Assembly (NCBI GenBank): GCA_963721655.1
Contig: CAVRKH010000006.1
Coordinates: forward strand, 151,986 to 215,985
From: an uncultured Chloroflexia bacterium
Lineage (GTDB): Bacteria; Chloroflexota; Limnocylindria; Limnocylindrales; CSP1-4
DNA length: 64,000 nt
Direction of reading: 5' to 3'
Shown in pieces: positions 48,720 to 60,423 of this stretch (position 1 is its first letter; the number at the start of each line of letters is the position of its first letter). Under the pieces are notes generated by a model. That model ran no database searches, was not told the origin of the DNA, and saw nothing but the letters and a program-made list of their open reading frames with translations. The position numbers were made by a program, and so were the translations under genes.

Positions 48720-49103
48720 TTGCCCCGAATGGAGGGCCCACTGTCCCCCTCACCTGCCCGCGTCCGCAGCACCGTCGCGTCGATCGTCGACCAGCCCGAG
48801 GAGCTGCGCGCCCTGCGGGCCTTCCACAAGACCCTCGCTGACGTGAACCGGCTGCGGATCGTTCAGCGGCTCGCCCGCGCCGAGGCGTCGGTCACCGAGC
48901 TCATCGACCACGTCGGCCTGTCGCAGCCGCTCGTCTCGTGGCACGTCGGCCGCCTCCGCGCCGCCGGCCTCGTCGAGACCCGGCGGGTCGGCCGCGAGAC
49001 GATCTGCCGGCTCCTGCCGGCCGCCTTCGAGGCGTTCCTCGACCGCGAGCGAGAGATCCTCGGCCTGGCCCACAGCGGCACGGCCCGGAGCGCCGCATCG
49101 TGA
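48720..49103 (+). CDS. ArsR/SmtB-family transcriptional regulator
   Basis: [59 protein letters not shown] is a winged HTH. The start is either TTG 48720 or ATG 48729. Confidence 0.8.
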
Positions 49104-49732
49104 GCGTGGTCACGCCGAGCCTGCGCGACCGCGTGCGCGGCATTGCCACGCCGGTCGCTCTCGCCATGGGTCGCGTCGGCCTCACCCCGAACGCCCTGAC
49201 CCTGATCGGGTTCGCCGGCACGTGTGCGGCAGCGATCCTCGCCGCCGTCCAGGCGTGGCTCCCCGCCGGGATCCTCGTGCTCGTGTTCGGCGCCTTCGAC
49301 ATGTTCGACGGCACCCTCGCGCGGGCAACCGGCAGGGCCTCGAAGCTGGGCGCGTTCCTGGACTCCGTCTTCGACCGCTGGGGCGAAGGGATCGTCTACG
49401 TCGGCATCGTCGCGGGCTGCGTCGCCGCCGACTACCAGGAGGGCGCGATCCTGGCCGCCGCCGCCATGACCTCGGCGTTCATGGTCAGCTATGCGCGCGC
49501 CAAGTCGGAGGGCCTCGGCTTCACCGAGGGCACCGGTATGGCCGCGGTCGGCCTGGCGCCACGCGAGATCCGGCTCGTCATCCTCACGATCGGGCTGCTG
49601 TGGACCGGCCTCGCCGGAGGCCTCGGGCCGCTCGCGGCGAGCCTCGGACTCATCACGATCCTCGCCACGATCACCGTCATCCAACGAATCCTTCACGTCG
49701 TGAACCAGAACAGGAAGCAGGAGAACCAGTGA
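49100..49732 (+). CDS. CDP-alcohol phosphatidyltransferase (phosphatidylinositol-phosphate synthase, PgsA1-like)
   Basis: [31 protein letters not shown] matches D(x)2DG(x)2AR(x)8G(x)3D(x)3D. The GTG start overlaps the arsR stop (GTGA). Confidence 0.85.
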
Positions 49733-50985
49733 GCAAGAACGGGAACGGCACCAACGGCGCGACGCCCAGCAACACGTGGGCCGGTGCAGGCCGCCGCAAG
49801 GACGGCAAGATCCGCGTCGCGATCGTGGGCGTCGGCAACTGCGCGAGCAGCCTCGTCCAGGGACGCTACTACTACGAGGACGCCACGGAGACCGACTTCG
49901 TCCCCGGTCTCATGCACGTGAACCTCGGCGGATACCACGTCCGCGACATCGAGTTCGTGGCGGCGTTCGACGTCGACAAGAACAAGGTCGGCAAGGACCT
50001 GTCCGAGGCGATCTACACGAAGCCGAACAACACGTACGTCTTCCAGAAGGTCCCGAACATCGGCGTGACCGTCGAGCGGGGCATGACCCACGACGGCCTC
50101 GGCAAGTACCTCAGCCAGATCATCGAGAAGGCACCCGGGCCCACCGCCGACGTCGTCGGCATCCTCAAGGAGCGCGAGGTCGACGTCATGGTGTCGTACC
50201 TGCCGGTCGGCTCCGAGGAGGCGACCAAGTGGTACGTCGAGCAGGCCCTCAAGGCAGGCGTGGCGTTCGTCAACGCGATCCCCGTGTTCATCGGCCGCGA
50301 GCCGTACTGGCAGCGCCGCTTCGCGGAGGAAGGTCTGCCGGTCATCGGTGACGACATCAAGAGCCAGGTCGGCGCGACGATCAGCCACCGCGTGCTGACC
50401 CGCCTGTTCATGGACCGCGGCGTCCGCCTCGACCGCACGTACCAGCTGAACTTCGGCGGCAACACCGACTTCCTGAACATGCTCGAGCGCGAGCGCCTCG
50501 AGTCCAAGAAGATCTCGAAGACCAACGCGGTCACCTCGATGCTCGACTACGAGCTCGACGACGACAACGTCCATGTCGGCCCGAGCGACCACGTCCCGTG
50601 GCTGCAGGATCGCAAGTGGTGCTACATCCGCATGGAGGGCACGACCTTCGGCGACGTGCCGCTCAACGCAGAGCTCAAGCTGGAGGTCTGGGACAGCCCG
50701 AACAGCGCCGGCGTCATCACCGACGCCATCCGCTGCGCGAAGCTCGGGCTCGATCGCGGCCTTGCCGGCACGCTGGTCGCGCCGTCGAGCTACTTCATGA
50801 AGAGCCCGCCGCAGCAGATCCACGACGACATCGCGTTCAACCGGGTCGAGGCCTTCATCCGCGGCGAGGACAACGAGGTGCTCGTCGGGACGGAGACCCC
50901 GGCCAAGCGGACCTTCCGCAAGCTCGCGGCCAGCAAGGCGTCCGCCGGGGGGGCAACGACCAAGACGCCGACCGCGGCGAAGTGA
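49729..50985 (+). CDS. ino1: myo-inositol-1-phosphate synthase
   Basis: [57 protein letters not shown] and SKKISKT. The GTG start overlaps the upstream stop. Confidence 0.9.
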
Positions 50986-51987
50986 CGGCGCGCGAGCGGG
51001 AGCTCGAGGCGCCCCACCGGCGTCTCGAGCCCGGACCGCGCATCGTCGAGAAGGCGGCCGTCGTCGGCTACAAGGCGGCCGAGCGCCTGCTCGGCATCCT
51101 GCCTCCGGGACCCAGTCGATTCGTGGCCAGCCGCGTCGCGCAGGCCTCGTACCTGCTCTGGCCGCAGAAGCGACGCTGGTCGAATCGCAACTTCGGGCAC
51201 GTCCTGGGGCTGTCGCCCGACGACCCGCGTGTCCGCCGGCTGGCCCTCCAGGCCTACGCCGAGTACGGCCGCTACCTGGTCGAGCTCGATGCGCCTGCCG
51301 TCCCGCACGGCTGCCGAGGTCGACCAACTTGCGGGCGACATCGACGTCGAGGCCGTCAAGCGGCTGCGCGAGGAGTCGCCCGGTGGGCTGATCCTGGCAG
51401 CGTCGCACATGGGCAGCAACGAAGCGGTCGCGGTGTCGATCGCCGATCACGGCCTGCCAATCAGCGTCGTGGCCGACGACTCCTCGTTCCCCGAGCTGTT
51501 CGAGCACCTTCGCAGGGAGCGCGAGCAATGGAGCGTGACGCTGATCAAGTGGCGCAACCTGCGCGGCATCTTCGATGTGCTGCGCAAGCGCGAGATGCTC
51601 GGGCTCCTCGTCGACTGGGGCTACCGCGCGGACGGGATCCCGGTCCGCCTCTTCGGCGACTGGACCACGCTGCCGGCCGGTCCCGCCACGCTCGCCGCGA
51701 AGACGCGCTCGTGGATCGTCTCCGTCCACATCAAGCGCAGGAGCGACGGCAGGTTCCACCTGTCGTGGAGCGAGCCGATCGTGGTGGCGTCCACCGACCC
51801 GGCCGAGCTCCAGCGCGCCACACAGGCCATGGCCGACGAGCTCACCGCGATCGTCAGCGCGGCGCCGGAGCAGTGGTACAACTTCAAGCCGATGTGGCCG
51901 GCGTCGGCCGCAGAGGCGGCCGACCTCGAGCGGCGGGCCCTGGTCATGCAGGCAGGCCAGCCGGACCCGGGTCCCGGGCGCCGATGA
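50982..51987 (+). CDS. lysophospholipid/lipid A-type (LpxL/HtrB/PatA-like) acyltransferase, copy 1; frame broken by one extra base near 51288
   Basis: [35 protein letters not shown], then in the +1 frame MRLPS...[15 protein letters not shown] (HX4D-like HMGSNE) ...[19 protein letters not shown]...PAGPATLA. 1006 nt equals 3n+1. Confidence 0.75.
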
Positions 51988-52982
51988 CGACGGCCCGGCC
52001 GAAGCGCCGCCGCGGGACATTCGTGCAGGAGGTCCGCGCGCGGTTGCTCGGCGCGCTGGCGTGGGTCGCCGGGCGGCTGCCCGAGGGACCGTTGATCCGC
52101 CTGGCGGAGCTGGCCGGCTCGGCGTGGTACCGGGCAGCTCCGGAGCGGGCCGCACAGGCCCGGCGCAACCTGCGTCGCGTCGCGCAGGCGCTCGACGAAC
52201 GCGGACTCGGGTCGGCCCCGGTTCGTGCCGCCGCCCACGACCCGGCTGCGCTGGAGCGCCTCGTCCGGGCGGCCTTCCGCCACAACGCCCGCTACTACCT
52301 CGAGGTGGTGCGCGCGCCCTCGCTCCGCCCGCGGGACGTCGACGAGCGGATTCTCGTGGAGACGCCGGAGGTCGTGGCGGCTGCGTTCAGCGCCGGCGAG
52401 CCCGTGATCTTCGTCGGCCTCCATTTCGGGGACCTCGAGCTGCCCTCGCGGATGCTGGCCGCGCACGTCGGACAGGCCGTCGCGCCGATGGAGACGATCG
52501 GCGATCCGGCCCTCCAGGCGTACTTCGAGCGGACGCGCGGGGCGAACGGCGTGCGGATCGTCGGCCTGCGCGAGGCGCGCCGCGAGCTGCTCGGCGCGCT
52601 GCGTGACGGTGTCTCGGTGGGCCTCGTCGGGGACCGCGACCTGACCGGCGGCGGCGTCGGGGTGACCCTCTTCGGCGCGCCGGCGACCCTGCCGCTCGGT
52701 CCGGCGCTGCTGTCGATCGAGAGTGGCGCCCCGATGTACGTCGTCGGCGTTCGGCGGGCCGGGCGCGGTCGCTACCGGGGACGGCTCGAAGCGATCCCGA
52801 TGCCGCCCGAGGGTCCGCGCCGCGAGCGGGTGATGACGGCGACGGCATCGGTCGCGGCAGCCTTCGAGCGGATCATCGCCGACGCCCCGGAACAATGGTG
52901 GGCGGTCTTCTTTCCGATCTGGCCGGACCTCGAGGCGGCGCCCGAGGTCCAGGAGCCGGTGTCCGTCGGGCGGACCGCATGA
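51984..52982 (+). CDS. lysophospholipid/lipid A-type (LpxL/HtrB/PatA-like) acyltransferase, copy 2
   Basis: ARRNLRRV...AAFRHNARYYLEVVR, VIFVGLHFGDLEL (HX4-like), VGLVGDRDLTGGGVGVTLFG and PLGPALLS. The ATG overlaps the upstream stop (ATGA). Confidence 0.75.
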   Translation: MTTARPKRRRGTFVQEVRARLLGALAWVAGRLPEGPLIRLAELAGSAWYRAAPERAAQARRNLRRVAQALDERGLGSAPVRAAAHDPAALERLVRAAFRHNARYYLEVVRAPSLRPRDVDERILVETPEVVAAAFSAGEPVIFVGLHFGDLELPSRMLAAHVGQAVAPMETIGDPALQAYFERTRGANGVRIVGLREARRELLGALRDGVSVGLVGDRDLTGGGVGVTLFGAPATLPLGPALLSIESGAPMYVVGVRRAGRGRYRGRLEAIPMPPEGPRRERVMTATASVAAAFERIIADAPEQWWAVFFPIWPDLEAAPEVQEPVSVGRTA

Positions 52983-53791
52983 GCCACGACGGCGACACCG
53001 AGCCGACCCCGACGGGTCGCGCGGACCTGCACCTCCACACGCTCGCGTCCGACGGGACGGCGGGCGTCCTCGAGATCCTCGAGCACGTCGAGGCGGAGAC
53101 GAACCTCGACGTCATCGCGATCACCGACCACGACCGCATCGACGCGGCCCTGGCAGCCCGGGCGATTGCCGCCGATCGCGGCATGCGCGCCGAGGTGATC
53201 GTCGGTGAGGAGGTCTCGAGCCTGGGCGGCCACGTCCTCGCGCTGTTCGTGGACACGCGGATCCGCCCCCTCCGCACGCTGAGCGCCACGGTTGCCGAGA
53301 TCCACGACGCGGGCGGCGTGGCGATCCCGGCGCATCCGCTGGTCCCGTACCCGCTGTGCGCCCAGGGCTGGGTCATCCGCGGGCTGCTCGACCGCTCCGA
53401 CGAGCGGTTCCACCCCGACGCCCTGGAGACCTTCAACCCGACGATGCTCGGCCGGCCGTGGCACTCGAAGGTGGTCCGCTTCGCCGAGGACAATGGCCTG
53501 GCCATGGTCGGCAACAGCGACGCGCACGCGCTCGGCGCGATCGGCGCCGGGTGGACCGAATTCCCGGGCCGGACCGCGGCCGACCTGCGCGCCGCGATCG
53601 TCGCCCACGAGACGGTCTTCCACGGGTCGTTCCACGGGACGTCGGGCCAGGTCCGCACGTTCGGGCGCCAGCTCGCGAAGTACGGCCGCGATGCGCACGC
53701 GGGGGTCAAGGGCCGGATCCGGCGCGATGGCTCCGGTCGCGACCTCGGCTATCCGGCCGAGCACGGCCCGCTCGACGAGGCGCGGCGATGA
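52979..53791 (+). CDS. PHP-domain (polymerase and histidinol phosphatase family) metal-dependent phosphoesterase
   Basis: ADLHLHTLASDGT, VIAITDHD, AIPAHP and VGNSDAH motifs. Both ends overlap the neighbouring genes by 4 nt. Confidence 0.8.
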   Translation: MSHDGDTEPTPTGRADLHLHTLASDGTAGVLEILEHVEAETNLDVIAITDHDRIDAALAARAIAADRGMRAEVIVGEEVSSLGGHVLALFVDTRIRPLRTLSATVAEIHDAGGVAIPAHPLVPYPLCAQGWVIRGLLDRSDERFHPDALETFNPTMLGRPWHSKVVRFAEDNGLAMVGNSDAHALGAIGAGWTEFPGRTAADLRAAIVAHETVFHGSFHGTSGQVRTFGRQLAKYGRDAHAGVKGRIRRDGSGRDLGYPAEHGPLDEARR

Positions 53792-55033
53792 AGATCGGCC
53801 TCGTCTGTCCGTACATCTACCCCGACGGCGGCGGCGTCGCGCAGCACGTCGGGTACCTCTACGAGAACCTCCGCCTGCGCGGCCACGACGTGCGGATCAT
53901 CACCGCCAGCCACGGCCCGCAGCGCTCGTCGGAGGGCGACGTGATCCGGCTGGGCGTCGGCTTCTCGGTCCCGACCAACGGATCGATGGGGACGCTGACG
54001 TTCTCGCCGCGCTACCTCGGCCAGATCAAGCGCGATGCTCGAACGGGAGCGCTTCGACGTCCTCCATTTCCACGAGCCGTTCGTGCCGTTCCTGTCGCTG
54101 TTCCTGCTGCGCGAGTCGACGAGCGTGAACGTGGCCACGTTCCACGCCTACGCCGGCTTTTCGCCGTCGTACGAGTTCGGCAGTCGGTTCCTCGGCGGGT
54201 ACGCCGAGCGCCTGCATGGCCGGATCGCGGTATCGGCCGCGGCCCGCCACTTCATCGACCGCTACTTCCCCGGCGACTACAAGCTGATCCCCAACGGCGT
54301 CGACATCAGCCGCTTCGATCGTGCCGTCCCGATCGCGCGCTGGCAGGACGGGACGCGCAACCTGCTGTTCGTCGGGCGGCACGAGCCGCGCAAGGGCCTG
54401 CTCGACCTGCTCAAGGCGTACCGCCTGCTGCGCAAGACCGGCTGCGACTGCCGGCTCCTCGTCGTGGGCTCCGGGCCGCAGGAGCGCGAAGCCCGGCGCT
54501 ACGTGGCGATCCGGCGGCTCAGCGGCGTCGAGTTCCTCGGCCGGGTGAGCGACCGCGCGAAGGCGCAGCTGTTCAAGAACGCCGACGTGTACGTCTCGCC
54601 GGCCACCGGCGGCGAGTCGTTCGGGATCGTGCTGCTCGAGGCGATGGCCGCCGGTGCGCCGATCGTGTGCTCGGACATCCACGGCTACAAGGGCGTCGTG
54701 CGGCGCGGGCGCGAGGCGCTGCTCGTCCCGCCGCGCAGCCCGAAGGCCCTGGCCGGCGCGATTGCCACGCTGCTCAACGACGACGCCGCCCGGATCGCGA
54801 TGGGCGAGGCCGGCCGTGCCCGCGCCGAGGACTTCAGCTGGCCGCAGGTGACCGCACGCGTGGAGTCGTACTACAACTTCGTGATCCGCCGCCTGGCCGC
54901 CGGCGGCCAGCTGCCCGAGGGCTATTCCGGGCCGATCCCCACTCGCCACGCGGCGCAGGAGCCGCCGCCGCCGCCAGCCGTCGACGTGAACGCCGGGGAC
55001 GGCACGGGATCGAGCGTGGGCGTCGCTCGCTAG
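53788..55033 (+). CDS. GT4-family glycosyltransferase (PimA-like phosphatidylinositol mannosyltransferase); frame broken by one extra base at about 54034
   Basis: MKIGLVCPYIYPDGGGVAQHV..., then in the +1 frame FDVLHFHEP, LLFVGRHEPRKG and SPATGGESFGIVLLEAMAAGAPIV (the E(x)7E region). 1246 nt equals 3n+1. Confidence 0.8.
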
Positions 55034-58000
55034 CTCGGGCTTCCTGCGCGAGCCTCCTTGCCCTTGTCCGGCGGGCCCTCCTCGTACAGTCGCCGCTCCA
55101 CGGCGGCGAGTCGCCAGGTCCAGGCCGAATAGGCCACCACGAGGCACGTCACGAGCAGGCCGAGGACGAGCACGGCCATGACCGGCGTGGCGAAGTTCGT
55201 CGTGGAGCTTCGGGCGATCGTGCTCACCGGGAACTGGAAGTCGTACAGGTACGTCGGCAACAGGCCCTGGTACGCGTTGACCATCGACGACGGCAGGGGC
55301 AGCGCCGAGATGTTCGGGTAGAACACGATGAACGTGACGACGATCGCGATCACCAGCCCGCCCACGAACCGGCGCGCGTCGCGAGTCGCCAGGACCTGCA
55401 GCGCGAGGTAGCCGAGCGGGATCGCGACGAGCAGCGCGATGGGTTCGACGGGAATGTTGTCGAGCACCAGGAACGGCGTGTCGGCGATCGCGCTGGATCG
55501 CCAGCAGCGGGACGGCCGCCCCGGCAAGCACGACGGCCCCGACGCCGACCCACCAGCGCACCGAGCGATCCTGCGCGACGCGGGGCAGCGTCCAGCGGCC
55601 GCCGAGCGCGAGGAGGAACAACAGCACGCCGATCCCGACCGCGAGGGCCAGGCCCAGCGTCCGCCACGTCAGCACGAACTGCGGGATGTACGGCGGGCAG
55701 GCCGCGGACGGGTTGTGAACCGCGAGCACGTCCACGAACCCGCACAGCGGCCGGGAGAACACGTGCATGAGGGCTGGCGCGACGATCGCCAGCGCGGCCA
55801 CGGCCTTGGCGAGGAACCAGGTCCGACGCGACGCCCCGTGCCACAGCTCGGCCACGAAGTAGGCGAGGGCCAGGATCACGAACGGCAGCGCCGTGTAGTA
55901 GTGGTACTGGAACGCGGCCCGGTCGATGCGCCCCCACGGGATCCACTGCGCGGCGAAGCCCACCGCGATGAGCGCCAGACCGAGGCTGCGCCGCTTGAAC
56001 GACTGGTACGCGACGAACGCCATCGCCGGGACGCCGAACCACCAGATGGCGAGGTTGCCGGCGTCATAGATCGCCGCCGACGTGCCGTCACCGAAGCCGC
56101 CCTGGTAGAACCAGACCGGCTTGAGGTCGAACGGCCACGCCCACCACGGCGACGACGCGGCGTGGGCCGACGTGAGCTCGTTGTGGTAGCGATACATCTG
56201 GCCGGTCAGCTCGAGCAGGGTCTGGCCGGTGTGCCCGGGCGGCCAGCCCGGCACGATCTGGTAGCCGTCGAGGGCGGCCCACGGCAGGTACGAGATGACG
56301 TAGACGACGACCGGCAGGACGACGAGGCTCGCGGTGGCCCACACGATGGGGATTCCGAACAGCCAGCCGGGCCGCAGCCAGCCGGCGGGCGGCCGCGCCG
56401 GCGGTTCGAGGAAGCGCGCGGGGTCGTCGGCTGCCGGCGGCGCGGCCAGCGGCCCGAAGCCGTACTGCCGCCCGAGCCAGAACAGGCCGTACACGACCAG
56501 TGAGCCGAGGGCGAGGGCGATCGCGAGGTCCAGCGGCCGCACGAGGATCGGACCGAGCGCGTACTCGGTCGACAGCCGACCCGTCGCGAGGGCGCCGAAG
56601 AAGACGAGGGTGCCGAGGCCGGCCGGCCCGAGCACCGCCAGCCGGAACTCCTCGTCGGACCAGGCGACCGGATGGAGCACCGAGGCCAGGACCGCCAGGA
56701 GCGTGAGCCCGATCATGATCAGCAGGAACGTCACGTTGCCGAACGGCGAGGCGCTGCCCTCGGGCACGCTGATCGCGATGTAGCCGAGCACGGCGGTCAG
56801 GGCGATGAGCCCGCCGATGGCGAGCACGCGGCCGAGCGCGCTTCGAACGAGGATCAGCAGGATCAGCGCGCCGATCGCGTAGGCCGCCACCCATTTCGAG
56901 GCCAGGGCAAGGCCCAGCAGCAGGCCGATGACCGGCATGGCGAGCCAGAACGCCCAGCGGCTCTTCCAGAAGCCTGTCCAGATCGCGGCGAACAGCGTGT
57001 ACGCGGCGATGATGAAGAGCCCGACGAACGCGTCGTTCATCGCGATCCGCGACTGCGCGAAGAGCATGCCGTCGACCAGCGCGAACAGGCCGGCGAGCAG
57101 CGCCACCTCCCGCCGCCGGAAGAGGATGCGCGCGAGCACGTACAGGAGGCCCGCCATCAGCGCGCCGGCGATCACCCCGGGCATCCGCCAGCTGAACGCG
57201 TGCTGACCGATCTCGACGGTCGCCCCGCTCCCGTCCGCAGCGAACGCCAGGAGCTGCTGGCGATCGCCGCCCGGACGCCCCTCGTCGATGTCGAAGGCCC
57301 ACGCCGAGGGGTCGAACGGCAGGCGCGCGTCGGCGTACACGGCGTTCGCGTGCGGCTCGACGACGTAGACCGTGGATCCGCTCCCGTCCGGCGTCCGGCC
57401 GAGGATGTGCACCTGACGCGTCGGCACGTCGTAGCCGATGCGGCTGCCGAGGCCGGGCAGCGGGTACGTGTTGGCGATGCTCGGGCCCTTGTCCTCGGAG
57501 TCCTGCCCGAGGTCGACGACGGCGTACGTCGGCTTGTCCGCGGTGCCCGCCGTCGCGTAGTACTTCTCGTCGTCGATGTTGGTGATCGAGGCAAGGCCGT
57601 GGGCGCCACCCTCGAGCGGGAACGCCCAGAGCTCGTCGCCGGTCGCCCGGTCGAGGAAGGCGACCCCGTCCCCGTCGGCCACCAGCACCTGCTCGACGGG
57701 GACGATCTCGATGCCCGGCAGCTCACCGGCGTCGATCGCGTCCTCGACGTCCGTCTGCTCGCCGTTGCCGAGCCCGCCGATCGTGACGCGCTCCTCCCCG
57801 GACGCGAGTTGCGCTTCGATCACTCGCTGCGTCCCCGCCGAGCAGCTCGGCCAGCCGCCCGGCGACCGCGGCCGGGTCGTCGATCGAGGCCGGAGTCGCG
57901 ACGACGGCCGAGCCGGAGCCGACGTCGGCGGCCTCGACGAGGCCCGGTCGCTCCGTGTCGAGCGTGACCTCGCCGGTCACCGAATCGACCACGAGGAGCC

Positions 58001-60423
58001 GGTCGCCGGCAGTCGCGAGGACCGTGGTGCCGTCCTCTGCGACGGCGAGGCGGTCGACGGGAACTCCGAGGTCGGCGACCTGGAACGGCTCGACGCTCTC
58101 CGCCCCGCCGATGTCGAGCTGGGCGAGGTCGAGGGTGTACAGCTCCCCGGCCTCGGTTGCGGCGAACAGCTGGCTCGCGGTCGGATCGTGGGCCAGGGCG
58201 CCCGTCGGGCCGAGGTCGTACCGCGCGACCTCGGCGCGCGAGCCGAGGTCGTAGCCGCGAATCCCCGTGTCCGTCGCGAGCCACAGCCGTGCGCCCGTCT
58301 GGTCGCCGGTCGCGATGTCCGTGTGGCGCGGCTCGACCAGCGCGTCGTTGACCGGGGCACCGAGCGAGCCCGTGGCGCTGACCTTGTCGTCGCCGAACGC
58401 GGTGATCCCGGCCGCGATCAGGTACTTGCCGAGGTGCGGGTGGGTCCACTCGTAGATGTTGCTCTCGTCGCCGTAGCGCCAGTCCTGGAGGAACTCGGTC
58501 GCGGTGCGCGCGTGGTAGACCTCGTCGAAGTGCATGTTCAGCGGCTCCCCGAGCCGGAACGTGCGCAGCACGAGCGTGGCCACGACCAGCACCACGAGCA
58601 GCCACAGGTCGAGCTTGTCGAGGCGACCGCCTCGCTCGTGGGCAAGCGCGGCGCTCCGGTCGGGCACGACGGGCCGCTGGTCGAACCGTTCGCGGAACCA
58701 CAGGCCCAGCGCGCTCTCGCCGAGGATCGCGCTCGGGCTCCACACCGGCGACGGCTGCTGCGGCTCGGCTTCGTCCGGCCCGGTCGCATCCGCGGCCCGA
58801 TACACGACCGCGGGGCCGGCGACCGCGGGGCCGGCGAACGCCGCGCCGGACGCGATGGGTTCCGGGGCCGCCTCCGGGATGGGCAGGAGCTCCTCCTGGT
58901 CCGCGTCGATGACGCCTGCCTCGGCGAACTCGTCGGCCAGCCGTTCGCGGCCGTCGGCGCGCAGCTGGACGAACGCCCAGACCAGCCCGAGCAGGTGGAC
59001 CATGGCGATGATCGCGACCCACAGCTCGTCGTTGATCGACCCGCCGATCCCGAGCCAGTCGCTGATCCTGAAGCGACTGTTGTCGTAGATCGTGGTGAGG
59101 ACGACGTACATGTTCAGGAACGTCGCGACCGACAGCGCGACGTACGCCACCCGCCAGCGGATCGACACCGCGGCGAGGATCGCGGCAAGGGCGTAGAACG
59201 GGAACAGGTAGCGTTCGTGGACGCGCGTCGGCACGACGAAGAACACGAGCGCGAGCACGGCGAGCGCCACGAGCAGCGTGCGTCTGTCCGGGTGGCGCGC
59301 GGCGATGATCACGATCAGCACGATGGACGCGAGCAGCAACGCGCTCCCCACGGCGACCGCCGGCAGCGGGCCGATGAACGCGGTGCCGGTGCTGCAGCGG
59401 TCGCCGCCGCTGAGTGTTCGGACCGATGCCCGTCGTGTCGCACATCCACAGCCCGTCGTGGGCGAGCGTCAGGCCGCTGTCGCCGGGGACGAGCGCCCAG
59501 GGGTTGTAGGCGTTGACGGTGACGTACGGGTAGCCTCCCGCCGCCCGCCCGACCTGCTCGAGGAGCCCGGAGCGCACGAATGGCGCCTGCGGGGTCAGCT
59601 CCACCACCGACAGGTTGAACGGGGCCGCGAGGATGACCGCCGTGATCAGCCCGGCGAGGCCCGTGGTCAGGATCCGGATCGGACGGCCGGTCTCGCGCTC
59701 CCAGGCCAGGAACCGCCCGAGGAGGCCCGCTCGCGGCTCGATCGGGTCCGGCGGCGGATCGTCGCCGTACCCGCCGGCCGGCCACAGCGCCCGGCGGATC
59801 GTGATGATGGCGACGAGCGGCACGAGGATGCCGAGCTGCGGCTTGATGACCGCCGCGAGCATCGTGAAGATCGCGGCCCGCTCCGGGCGGTCGCGCCACA
59901 GCTCGCGCAGGCCGAGCAGCAGGAACACGACGCCGAACGAGTCGACCTGGCCCCACACGGCGCTGTCGAACCAGCTGACCGGGTTGAGGACGAAGAACAG
60001 GGCCGCGAGCAGCGCCACCGACTGGCGCGCTCCGAGCTCGCGGGCCATCGACCAGGCGAGGTAGCCGATCGCCGCATCGGCCAGGATCGGCGGGAGCTTG
60101 ATCAGGTCGCCGATGCCGCCCAGCCACGGAGCGACCGAGCCGATGAGCCACAGGACGTACATGTAGCCCGGGGTGTAGTCGATGAACCCGCTCTGGTAGA
60201 GCGTTCCGGGACCCTCGGTCGCCAGGCGGCTCGCCCACCCCTGGAACGAGATGATGTCGGTCCCGAACCCTGATCCCGGCAGGAGGACGTATGCGATGAT
60301 GAAACGGAGGGCGAGCCCGAGCGCGAGCACGAGCGCGATCGCGCCAACGGCCCCTGGAATCCCGGTTGACCGTTGCGGCGGGCGCGTGCCTCGCTCGGTC
60401 CCGCCTCTGGCGGGGCCAGTCAC
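55030..60423 (-). CDS. giant polytopic membrane protein of about 1,797 codons: an N-terminal GT-C module fused to a PMT (GT39-like) protein O-mannosyltransferase module with a large loop insertion. Three single-base frame breaks (about 59410, 57833-57836, about 55495)
   Basis: - Module 1: FGTDIISFQGWA, DYTPGYMYVLW, LNPVSWFDSAVWGQVDSF, and HERYLFPFY after the first frame break.
- Linker: Ala/Pro-rich.
- Module 2: MHFDEVYHARTA...EWTHPHLGKYLIAAG, about 395 aa of insertion, then SRIAMNDAFVGLF, QYHYYTALPF and the C-terminal TM segments.
- Continuity: no in-frame stop separates the modules.
- Length: 5394 nt minus 3 extra bases gives 1797 codons. Confidence 0.6.

Follow-up and report, generated by a model that had tools for sequence, protein, structure and literature searches.

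The 64,000-nucleotide window analysed here, from the genome of an uncultured Limnocylindria bacterium of soil (Chloroflexota; contig CAVRKH010000006.1), carries an inositol-lipid operon in which a gene for a PHP-superfamily phosphoesterase is embedded. The encoded protein is a strong candidate for the phosphatase that removes the ring phosphate of phosphatidylinositol phosphate (PIP) or of glycosylated PIP, and, judged from its sequence and gene context, this function is on balance probable. Bacteria and archaea make phosphatidylinositol (PI) via a phosphorylated intermediate. The other genes of the operon are predicted to cover the whole route from glucose-6-phosphate to an acylated PI-glycoside, with the dephosphorylation of PIP as the one gap, which the PHP protein is proposed to fill. 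The initial annotation of this DNA had pointed to the same step within an actinobacterial frame of reference. That framing does not hold, because the closest named homologues and loci (Candidatus Limnocylindrales/Limnocylindria) place the organism in Chloroflexota.

The PHP protein and its metal site

The window has a GC content of ~72%, and a codon-position GC plot reveals a plus-strand coding frame over 52980-53790 with a third-position GC of 0.94-0.97. The open reading frame runs from an ATG at 52979 to a TGA at 53791 and specifies 270 amino acids. Its start and the stop codon of the upstream acyltransferase gene share an ATGA at 52979-52982, and its stop codon shares another ATGA (53788-53791) with the start of the downstream gene for a family 4 glycosyltransferase (GT4). 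The location between acyltransferases and GT4, with 4-nt overlaps on both sides, is thus as initially described, and the four motifs then named (HLHTLASDG, ITDHD, PAHP and NSDAH) are all present in the translation, where the first two extend to DLHLHTLASDG and AITDHD. The protein matches Pfam PHP_C (PF13263) with an E-value of 4.9e-13 (48.8 bits, above the cut-off of 21.3) and Pfam PHP (PF02811) with an E-value of 3.2e-4 (21.5 bits, below the cut-off of 26.4). It has thousands of homologues, the top one being 94% identical (E 7e-163).

Nine residues that are predicted to be the ligands of the PHP trinuclear metal site (H18, H20, D25, H51, E78, H85, H119, D181 and H183) do not vary among 21 operon orthologues with identities of 35-77%. 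D16, D50, E150 and N153 are also invariant in this alignment. The nine ligands are kept across 43 Chloroflexota sequences, where the sole substitution is H85D at one locus (L151). An AlphaFold2 model built from 91 sequences (mean pLDDT 93.7) adopts the distorted (beta/alpha)7 barrel of PHP type. When this model is used as a Foldseek query, the top matches are all PHP proteins, with a probability of 1.00, TM-scores of 0.5-0.63 and identities of 19-25%.

The closest overall folds are those of BVU_3505 (3e38) and TM0559 (2anu), which rank first with Foldseek E-values of 1e-11 to 4e-10. Like the protein studied here, they are compact PHP barrels without an insertion domain. They are ~20% identical to it and uncharacterised, and hence are silent on substrate. 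Next in rank is RNase AM (TrpH/YciV; 7ug9, 9etk). RNase AM and the pAp phosphatase Cv1693 (2yb1) are the best characterised matches in sequence and fold (20-25% identity, TM-score ~0.5), and they have in common with this protein the PHP fold, the HxH start and the trinuclear metal site. However, the ~80-residue insertion domain that separates their barrel halves is absent here. In a profile search of PDB sequences, the window protein aligns to residues 3-86 and 169-253 of 9etk and to none between, and its own chain is continuous at this point.

These comparisons indicate a catalytically intact PHP enzyme that lies outside every characterised PHP family. It is placed in none of them because its NCBIfam scores fall far below the cut-offs, at 53.7 versus 375 bits for the RNase RNM equivalog (NF047791) and 36.1 versus 400 bits for the 3',5'-bisphosphonucleotide phosphatase (NF041577), and because the HisJ/HisK model (TIGR01856), which gives no match to it in the NCBIfam scan, matches another gene. 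This genome-wide TIGR01856 match (G000:C10:54524-55219, L183; 125.8 bits, above the cut-off) is away from the PHP locus and represents a genuine histidinol-phosphate phosphatase of the HisJ family of PHP proteins. Histidinol phosphatase had been named at the outset as a known, unrelated PHP function that the operon gene might turn out to have. This reading is rejected, given the missing model match and the separate HisJ gene in the same genome, and no other known PHP function fits.

No signal peptide or transmembrane segment is found in the translation, and the protein is therefore expected on the cytoplasmic side. In orthologues, the C-terminal ~35-55 residues are non-conserved yet cationic, with a net charge of +2 to +10 in nearly all cases, and are often amphipathic; the core is acidic (net -3 to -15). 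A cationic tail on an acidic core fits an interfacial enzyme.

The genome also encodes a second PHP/PHP_C paralogue with 32% identity, located ~62 kb past the end of the window (G000:C6:277698-278285, L002/L182). Its counterparts of D25 and H85 are replaced. The gene is flanked by mreB on one side and an LPG_synthase_TM-like gene on the other, and has no relation to the inositol operon.

Linkage to inositol-lipid genes

Conservation was surveyed in 301 Chloroflexota genomes, which were searched with the PHP protein and with PIP synthase (PIPS), and 60 loci were annotated by using all seven proteins encoded in the operon of a relative locus, L005, as tblastn queries. In 26 of 32 Limnocylindria genomes, the PHP and PIPS genes share a contig and are separated by ~3-4 kb. 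Of the remaining six genomes, three have the two genes on different short contigs, and three are without listed coordinates. Across the phylum, PHP is embedded in the operon in 19 families, 16 of them beyond Limnocylindria. Since PIPS is nearly universal in Chloroflexota (289/301 genomes), genome-level co-occurrence of the two genes inside this phylum is uninformative. A contig search with the PHP alignment likewise yields no cross-phylum information, as its best 80 loci are nearly all from Limnocylindria. The co-conservation with PIP synthase in related genomes that had been proposed as a check is nevertheless observed as physical linkage, in Limnocylindria, in these additional families and, with other arrangements, in two more phyla.

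The order of genes varies around a fixed position for PHP. Limnocylindria operons read ArsR-PIPS-Ino1-AT-AT-PHP-GT4 (AT, acyltransferase), and the commonest order outside this group is ArsR-Ino1-AT-AT-PHP-GT4-PIPS. Between these lineages PIPS is shifted to the opposite end of the operon, and PHP remains between the acyltransferases and GT4. Reduced variants have one acyltransferase (L139), no Ino1 (L140) or, in the Ino1-PHP-GT4-PIPS operon of L147, no acyltransferases. The whole operon, including PHP, is retained in the streamlined 1.0-1.4 Mb genomes of family f2. Most homologues that are longer than the window protein are singletons from long-read assemblies in which PHP is joined to the adjacent acyltransferase or GT4 in gene order (for example, P0312/L159); these are read as frameshift artefacts similar to those in the window and are excluded from the natural fusions.

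A different arrangement, PHP-Ino1-AT-PHP-PIPS-AT-GT4, is found on a Thermodesulfobium-type contig from a JGI metagenome (L189:3508-9270), which carries two PHP paralogues. The second of these (P0255; 36% identical) has a stop codon that overlaps the PIPS start, and its 90% cluster contains a protein from Thermodesulfobium narugense. An inositol operon with two PHP genes is thus carried by a cultured organism, which offers a practical test system.

In Thermoleophilia, PHP domains are fused to GT4 domains. The 642-amino acid protein P0313 has GT4 domains at its N terminus and PHP/PHP_C at its C terminus, and is not a read-through artefact because this domain order reverses the gene order of Chloroflexota. 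At least 120 clusters have this ~640-amino acid GT4::PHP architecture at 64% identity or more, and are named Solirubrobacteraceae, Conexibacter or Actinomycetota (Thermoleophilia). All three Thermoleophilia contigs examined have the order PAP2_3-PIPS-Ino1-(0-2 genes)-GT4::PHP-UDG. The PHP domain thus lies in an inositol-lipid neighbourhood, as it does in the window, although in Thermoleophilia GT4 precedes PHP in a fused protein and in the window PHP precedes a separate GT4. The best structural match of the fusion's GT4 part is still PimA (1e-16), and its EPRKG stretch and both E-x7-E glutamates are replaced. These proteins therefore appear to join a catalytically dead PimA-like module, which probably serves only for lipid or membrane binding, to an intact PHP domain. 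Relative to the window protein, D25 and H85 are replaced in the fused PHP domains, and the other core ligands are the same.

The PAP2_3 gene, which is AUR1/IPC-synthase-like, overlaps the PIPS start in every fusion-bearing Thermoleophilia cluster (for example, L180:2629-8920 and L181:1937-8923). Its product may act as an inositol-phosphoryl transferase or may provide another lipid phosphatase.

Taken together, the loci of Chloroflexota, Thermoleophilia and Thermodesulfobium show PHP tied to genes for inositol lipids across three phyla, in at least five arrangements. Among distant representatives, P0162 has no inositol genes nearby, and P0217 is on a 1.7-kb contig.

Composition of the operon in this genome

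The genome is a 3.39-Mb metagenome-assembled genome in 21 contigs, estimated to be 75.7% complete. Pfam and NCBIfam searches assign the seven genes of the operon in the order ArsR, PIP synthase, Ino1, acyltransferase 1, acyltransferase 2, PHP and GT4 (Table 1). In most of the related loci, too, the first gene of the operon encodes an ArsR regulator.

Table 1. Genes of the inositol-lipid operon, with coordinates in the window
Feature	Coordinates	Strand	Evidence
ArsR/SmtB-family regulator, first operon gene	48720..49103	+	Pfam HTH_5 2.1e-11; NCBIfam NF033788 72 bits, above cut-off
PIP synthase, CDP-alcohol phosphatidyltransferase	49100..49732	+	NF045883 PIPSynth, NF040950, motif, solved relatives
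myo-inositol-1-phosphate synthase (Ino1)	49729..50985	+	TIGR03450 546 bits, below cut-off of 638; Pfam Inos-1-P_synth 2.5e-36
PatA/HtrB-like acyltransferase 1	50982..51987	+	Lip_A_acyltrans 7e-23; extra base at 51288
PatA/HtrB-like acyltransferase 2	51984..52982	+	Lip_A_acyltrans 2.6e-29; NF005919 128.7 bits
PHP-superfamily trinuclear-metal phosphoesterase, candidate PIP phosphatase	52979..53791	+	PHP_C and PHP domains, ligands, model, synteny
PimA-like GT4 glycosyltransferase	53788..55033	+	Glyco_transf_4 and Glycos_transf_1, split over two frames; extra base ~54031

PIP synthase scores 128.5 bits with NF045883 (cut-off 170) and 136.9 bits with NF040950, which is also below the cut-off. It carries the complete CDP-alcohol phosphotransferase motif, D-x2-DG-x2-AR-x8-G-x3-D-x3-D, and among solved structures it is closest to the Renibacterium PIPS (5d92) and Mycobacterium tuberculosis PgsA1 (6h53). 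Ino1 is 90% identical over 400 residues to its counterpart at L005. Both acyltransferases exceed the Pfam cut-off for Lip_A_acyltrans, and their best NCBIfam match is the phosphatidylinositol mannoside (PIM) acyltransferase NF005919, at 96.5 and 128.7 bits versus a cut-off of 209. The intact GT4 of L005 retains the GGV, EPRKG and E-x7-E motifs and gives a full-length match to M. smegmatis PimA at 1.4e-62, compared to 1e-22 for the next-best structure. Across 28 operon GT4s, the residues G15-G16-V17, R197, R201-K202 and E276/E284 of the GGV, R/K and E-x7-E motifs do not vary.

Two of the genes are interrupted by frame breaks. When an intact 365-amino acid relative of acyltransferase 1 is aligned by tblastn, the frame switches between 51287 and 51289, and a similar switch occurs in GT4 between 54030 and 54032. 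Both breaks adjoin the sequence CGATGC. They are read as assembly errors because relatives keep both genes intact. A neighbouring minus-strand GT-C gene of ~1800 codons has three frame breaks (~59437-59468, ~57804-57835 and ~55494-55604) near CGATC-type sites, and it too is intact in relatives. The placement of the breaks suggests that long reads err systematically at a methylated motif that contains GAT.

In addition to the HisJ histidinol phosphatase, the genome has two genes of the inositol monophosphatase (IMPase) family, which already cover soluble inositol monophosphate. A search for PgpA (PF04608) in this partially complete genome and 30 relatives, a set of 31 in which 15 are of high quality, finds no such protein.

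Proposed reaction and competing explanations

The only genetically supported bacterial PIP-DAG phosphatase is BT_1525 of Bacteroides thetaiotaomicron, a PgpA-family protein for which knockout and complementation data exist (Heaver et al. 2022, PMC9246714). The reaction proposed for it, PIP to PI, is the same as that considered here, and its gene also resides inside a cluster for myo-inositol-1-phosphate synthase and PIP synthase. However, the folds are unrelated: BT_1525 is a PgpA protein, and the window protein is, from its sequence and model, a (beta/alpha)7 barrel with three metals. That the operon enzyme might itself be a PgpA phosphatase is rejected, both for this difference in superfamily and for the lack of PF04608 matches noted above. 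In mycobacteria, a July 2026 preprint (bioRxiv 10.64898/2026.07.15.738315) still calls the PIP phosphatase "long-sought" and proposes EphE, an alpha/beta hydrolase. The initial remark that the gene has not been firmly assigned in actinobacteria therefore remains correct, with a bacterial enzyme known only in Bacteroides.

The early PI/PIM operon of mycobacteria (pgsA1-patA-pimA) encodes a homologous PIP synthase, PatA-like acyltransferases and a PimA-like GT4, and serves the same pathway chemistry. In contrast to the operon described here, which includes Ino1, ArsR and two acyltransferases, mycobacteria have Ino1 elsewhere. To our knowledge, the mycobacterial PI operon contains no PHP gene. 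The control genome of Corynebacterium glutamicum has no PHP_C protein, and thus the PHP family is not the mycobacterial or corynebacterial enzyme. No paper that connects PHP enzymes with PIP turned up in full-text literature searches. The proposed role would bring together a known reaction and a known superfamily in a pairing that appears to be undescribed.

In the proposed pathway, Ino1 would make inositol-1-phosphate, which PIP synthase would couple to CDP-diacylglycerol to yield PIP. The PHP protein, acting as a cytoplasmic metal-dependent phosphomonoesterase, would hydrolyse PIP to PI, or would act on glycosylated PIP right after GT4. The PimA-like GT4 would add the first sugar and the two PatA-like acyltransferases would acylate the product. 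The active site of PIP synthase and PimA both work on the cytoplasmic side of the membrane. The conserved cationic tail on its acidic core might hold the PHP protein at the anionic inner membrane face, beside these two enzymes. The data establish the gene, its intact catalytic site, its fold and its conserved linkage to the other genes, and from these features we infer which substrate the enzyme uses, in what order the steps occur and that it associates with the membrane.

One version of this pathway departs from the mycobacterial textbook order. The PimA-like GT4 may glycosylate PIP directly, after which the PHP protein would strip the ring phosphate from glycosyl-PIP, so that the two enzymes form an obligate synthase/phosphatase pair that parallels the sucrose-phosphate or trehalose-phosphate pathways. 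This order is tentative and rather unlikely, and it would explain why PHP is adjacent to GT4 more constantly than to PIPS and why some co-orthologues outside the PI operon are paired with sucrose-phosphate-synthase-like GT4s.

Several observations count against a PIP phosphatase function. The linkage of the gene and the failure of any known PHP function to fit favour the original candidacy, but it is weakened by 12 Chloroflexota families that carry the same operon with no embedded PHP, including Ino1-GT4-PIPS operons in ~1.5-Mb single-contig genomes. A replacement phosphatase was sought beside these operons and none was found; their neighbours are genes for adenylosuccinate synthetase, an alpha/beta hydrolase, the DNA polymerase III delta' subunit, an AIR-synthase-like protein, Lgt and ParB. 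A PHP match at E≤1e-10 occurs in none of the seven genomes of family f30 and in none of the four listed genomes of genus g37 (~1.4-1.5 Mb), and PIPS is present. GT4 adjoins PIPS at all three loci examined in these lineages (G048, G126 and G021), in compact Ino1-GT4-PIPS or GT4-PIPS arrangements (L167 in the 1.52-Mb single-contig genome G021; L165/L166 in f30). These lineages must dephosphorylate PIP with another enzyme or not at all, which means that the pathway does not strictly require PHP.

Other points of this kind concern the wider family. In a maximum-likelihood tree, all Chloroflexota PHPs, whether linked to the operon or not, form one clade (SH-aLRT 99) from which the mreB-adjacent paralogue of the window genome is excluded. 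The unlinked copies are thus co-orthologues of the linked ones, and in families f15, f52 and f4 they adjoin a different GT4, away from PIPS, whose best solved relative is sucrose-phosphate synthase. It follows that the PHP-GT4 pairing is more constant than the PHP-PIPS pairing. The Thermoleophilia fusion domains form a clade of their own, apart from the Chloroflexota PHPs, and so support the wider family and not strict orthologues. The cationic tail is not specific, as the unrelated paralogue L002 also has one. Finally, operon membership alone is weak evidence, as the mycobacterial PI operon also carries hydrolases without a direct pathway role (Rv2609c and Rv2613c).

The unlinked genes have a recurrent context. 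At L150:8778-11513, in a 5.80-Mb single-contig Chloroflexota genome, and at L145 and L155, PHP is directly downstream of the sucrose-phosphate-synthase-like GT4, and the L150 locus also has a gene for a VTT/DedA membrane protein upstream. Such pairs may constitute a separate GT4 and phosphatase module.

Two rival explanations draw on the nearest relatives and the nearest neighbour of the PHP gene. It is unlikely that the gene encodes a co-transcribed housekeeping nucleotide or RNA phosphoesterase, such as a 3',5'-bisphosphonucleotide or nucleoside monophosphate phosphatase or a TrpH/YciV/RNase AM-like 5'-3' exoribonuclease, which might dispose of CMP, GDP or similar by-products or might have no direct pathway role. 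RNase AM and Cv1693 are indeed the nearest characterised relatives, JGI annotations name the family 'TrpH', and both the PHP-less operons and the accessory hydrolases of mycobacteria agree with such a role. Against it, both NCBIfam models for these activities score far below their cut-offs, the insertion domain is absent (the profile alignment skips chain residues ~87-168), and neither the fusion of PHP to a dead PimA-like domain nor its linkage through several gene orders in three phyla is explained. A phosphatase that forms half of a GT4 pair acting on a soluble or other non-PIP phosphoglycoside, as in sucrose-phosphate or MshA-type pathways, is distinctly unlikely. Adjacency to GT4 is the most constant feature of the gene, also outside the PI operon, and GT4s that use phosphorylated acceptors are commonly followed by a dedicated phosphatase. 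Yet the similarity of the operon GT4 to PimA, whose acceptor is the PI lipid, is far stronger than to any other structure, PHP abuts PIPS and not GT4 in the Thermodesulfobium-type operon, and the L147 operon contains, apart from PHP, only Ino1, GT4 and PIPS.

Two further alternatives retain a role in inositol or lipid metabolism or in its regulation, and both are very unlikely. The presence of Ino1 in the operon, together with the existence of small-molecule phosphomonoesterases such as histidinol phosphatase among PHP enzymes, could indicate a soluble inositol-monophosphate phosphatase that produces free inositol or regulates flux. However, hydrolysis of inositol-1-phosphate would destroy the substrate of PIP synthase, the two IMPase-family genes are already available, and neither the fusion to a PimA-like lipid-binding domain nor the basic tail would be accounted for. 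The PHP superfamily also includes diesterases (cyclic phosphate dihydrolase and nucleases) and CpsB tyrosine phosphatases. The protein could thus be a lipid phosphodiesterase or pyrophosphatase, whether phospholipase C/D-like on PI lipids or a CDP-DAG hydrolase, or it could regulate the glycosyltransferase as a CpsB-like enzyme. A weak NCBIfam match to a cyclic-phosphate diphosphodiesterase (1.2e-4) accords with the former, but translational coupling within a biosynthetic operon would be unexpected for a catabolic enzyme. As for the latter, neither Pfam nor NCBIfam gives a match to CpsB-type models, and no tyrosine kinase is seen in the operon.

If the PHP protein is a PIP phosphatase, the mycobacterial problem would stay unsolved by it, given that the Corynebacterium control genome lacks this family and that even some Chloroflexota do without it. 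PHP would instead represent a second, unrelated solution to PIP dephosphorylation, used in Chloroflexota, Thermoleophilia and Thermodesulfobium. With this assignment, abundant lineages of soil and freshwater would have a complete inositol-lipid pathway, and the PHP superfamily would gain a new activity.

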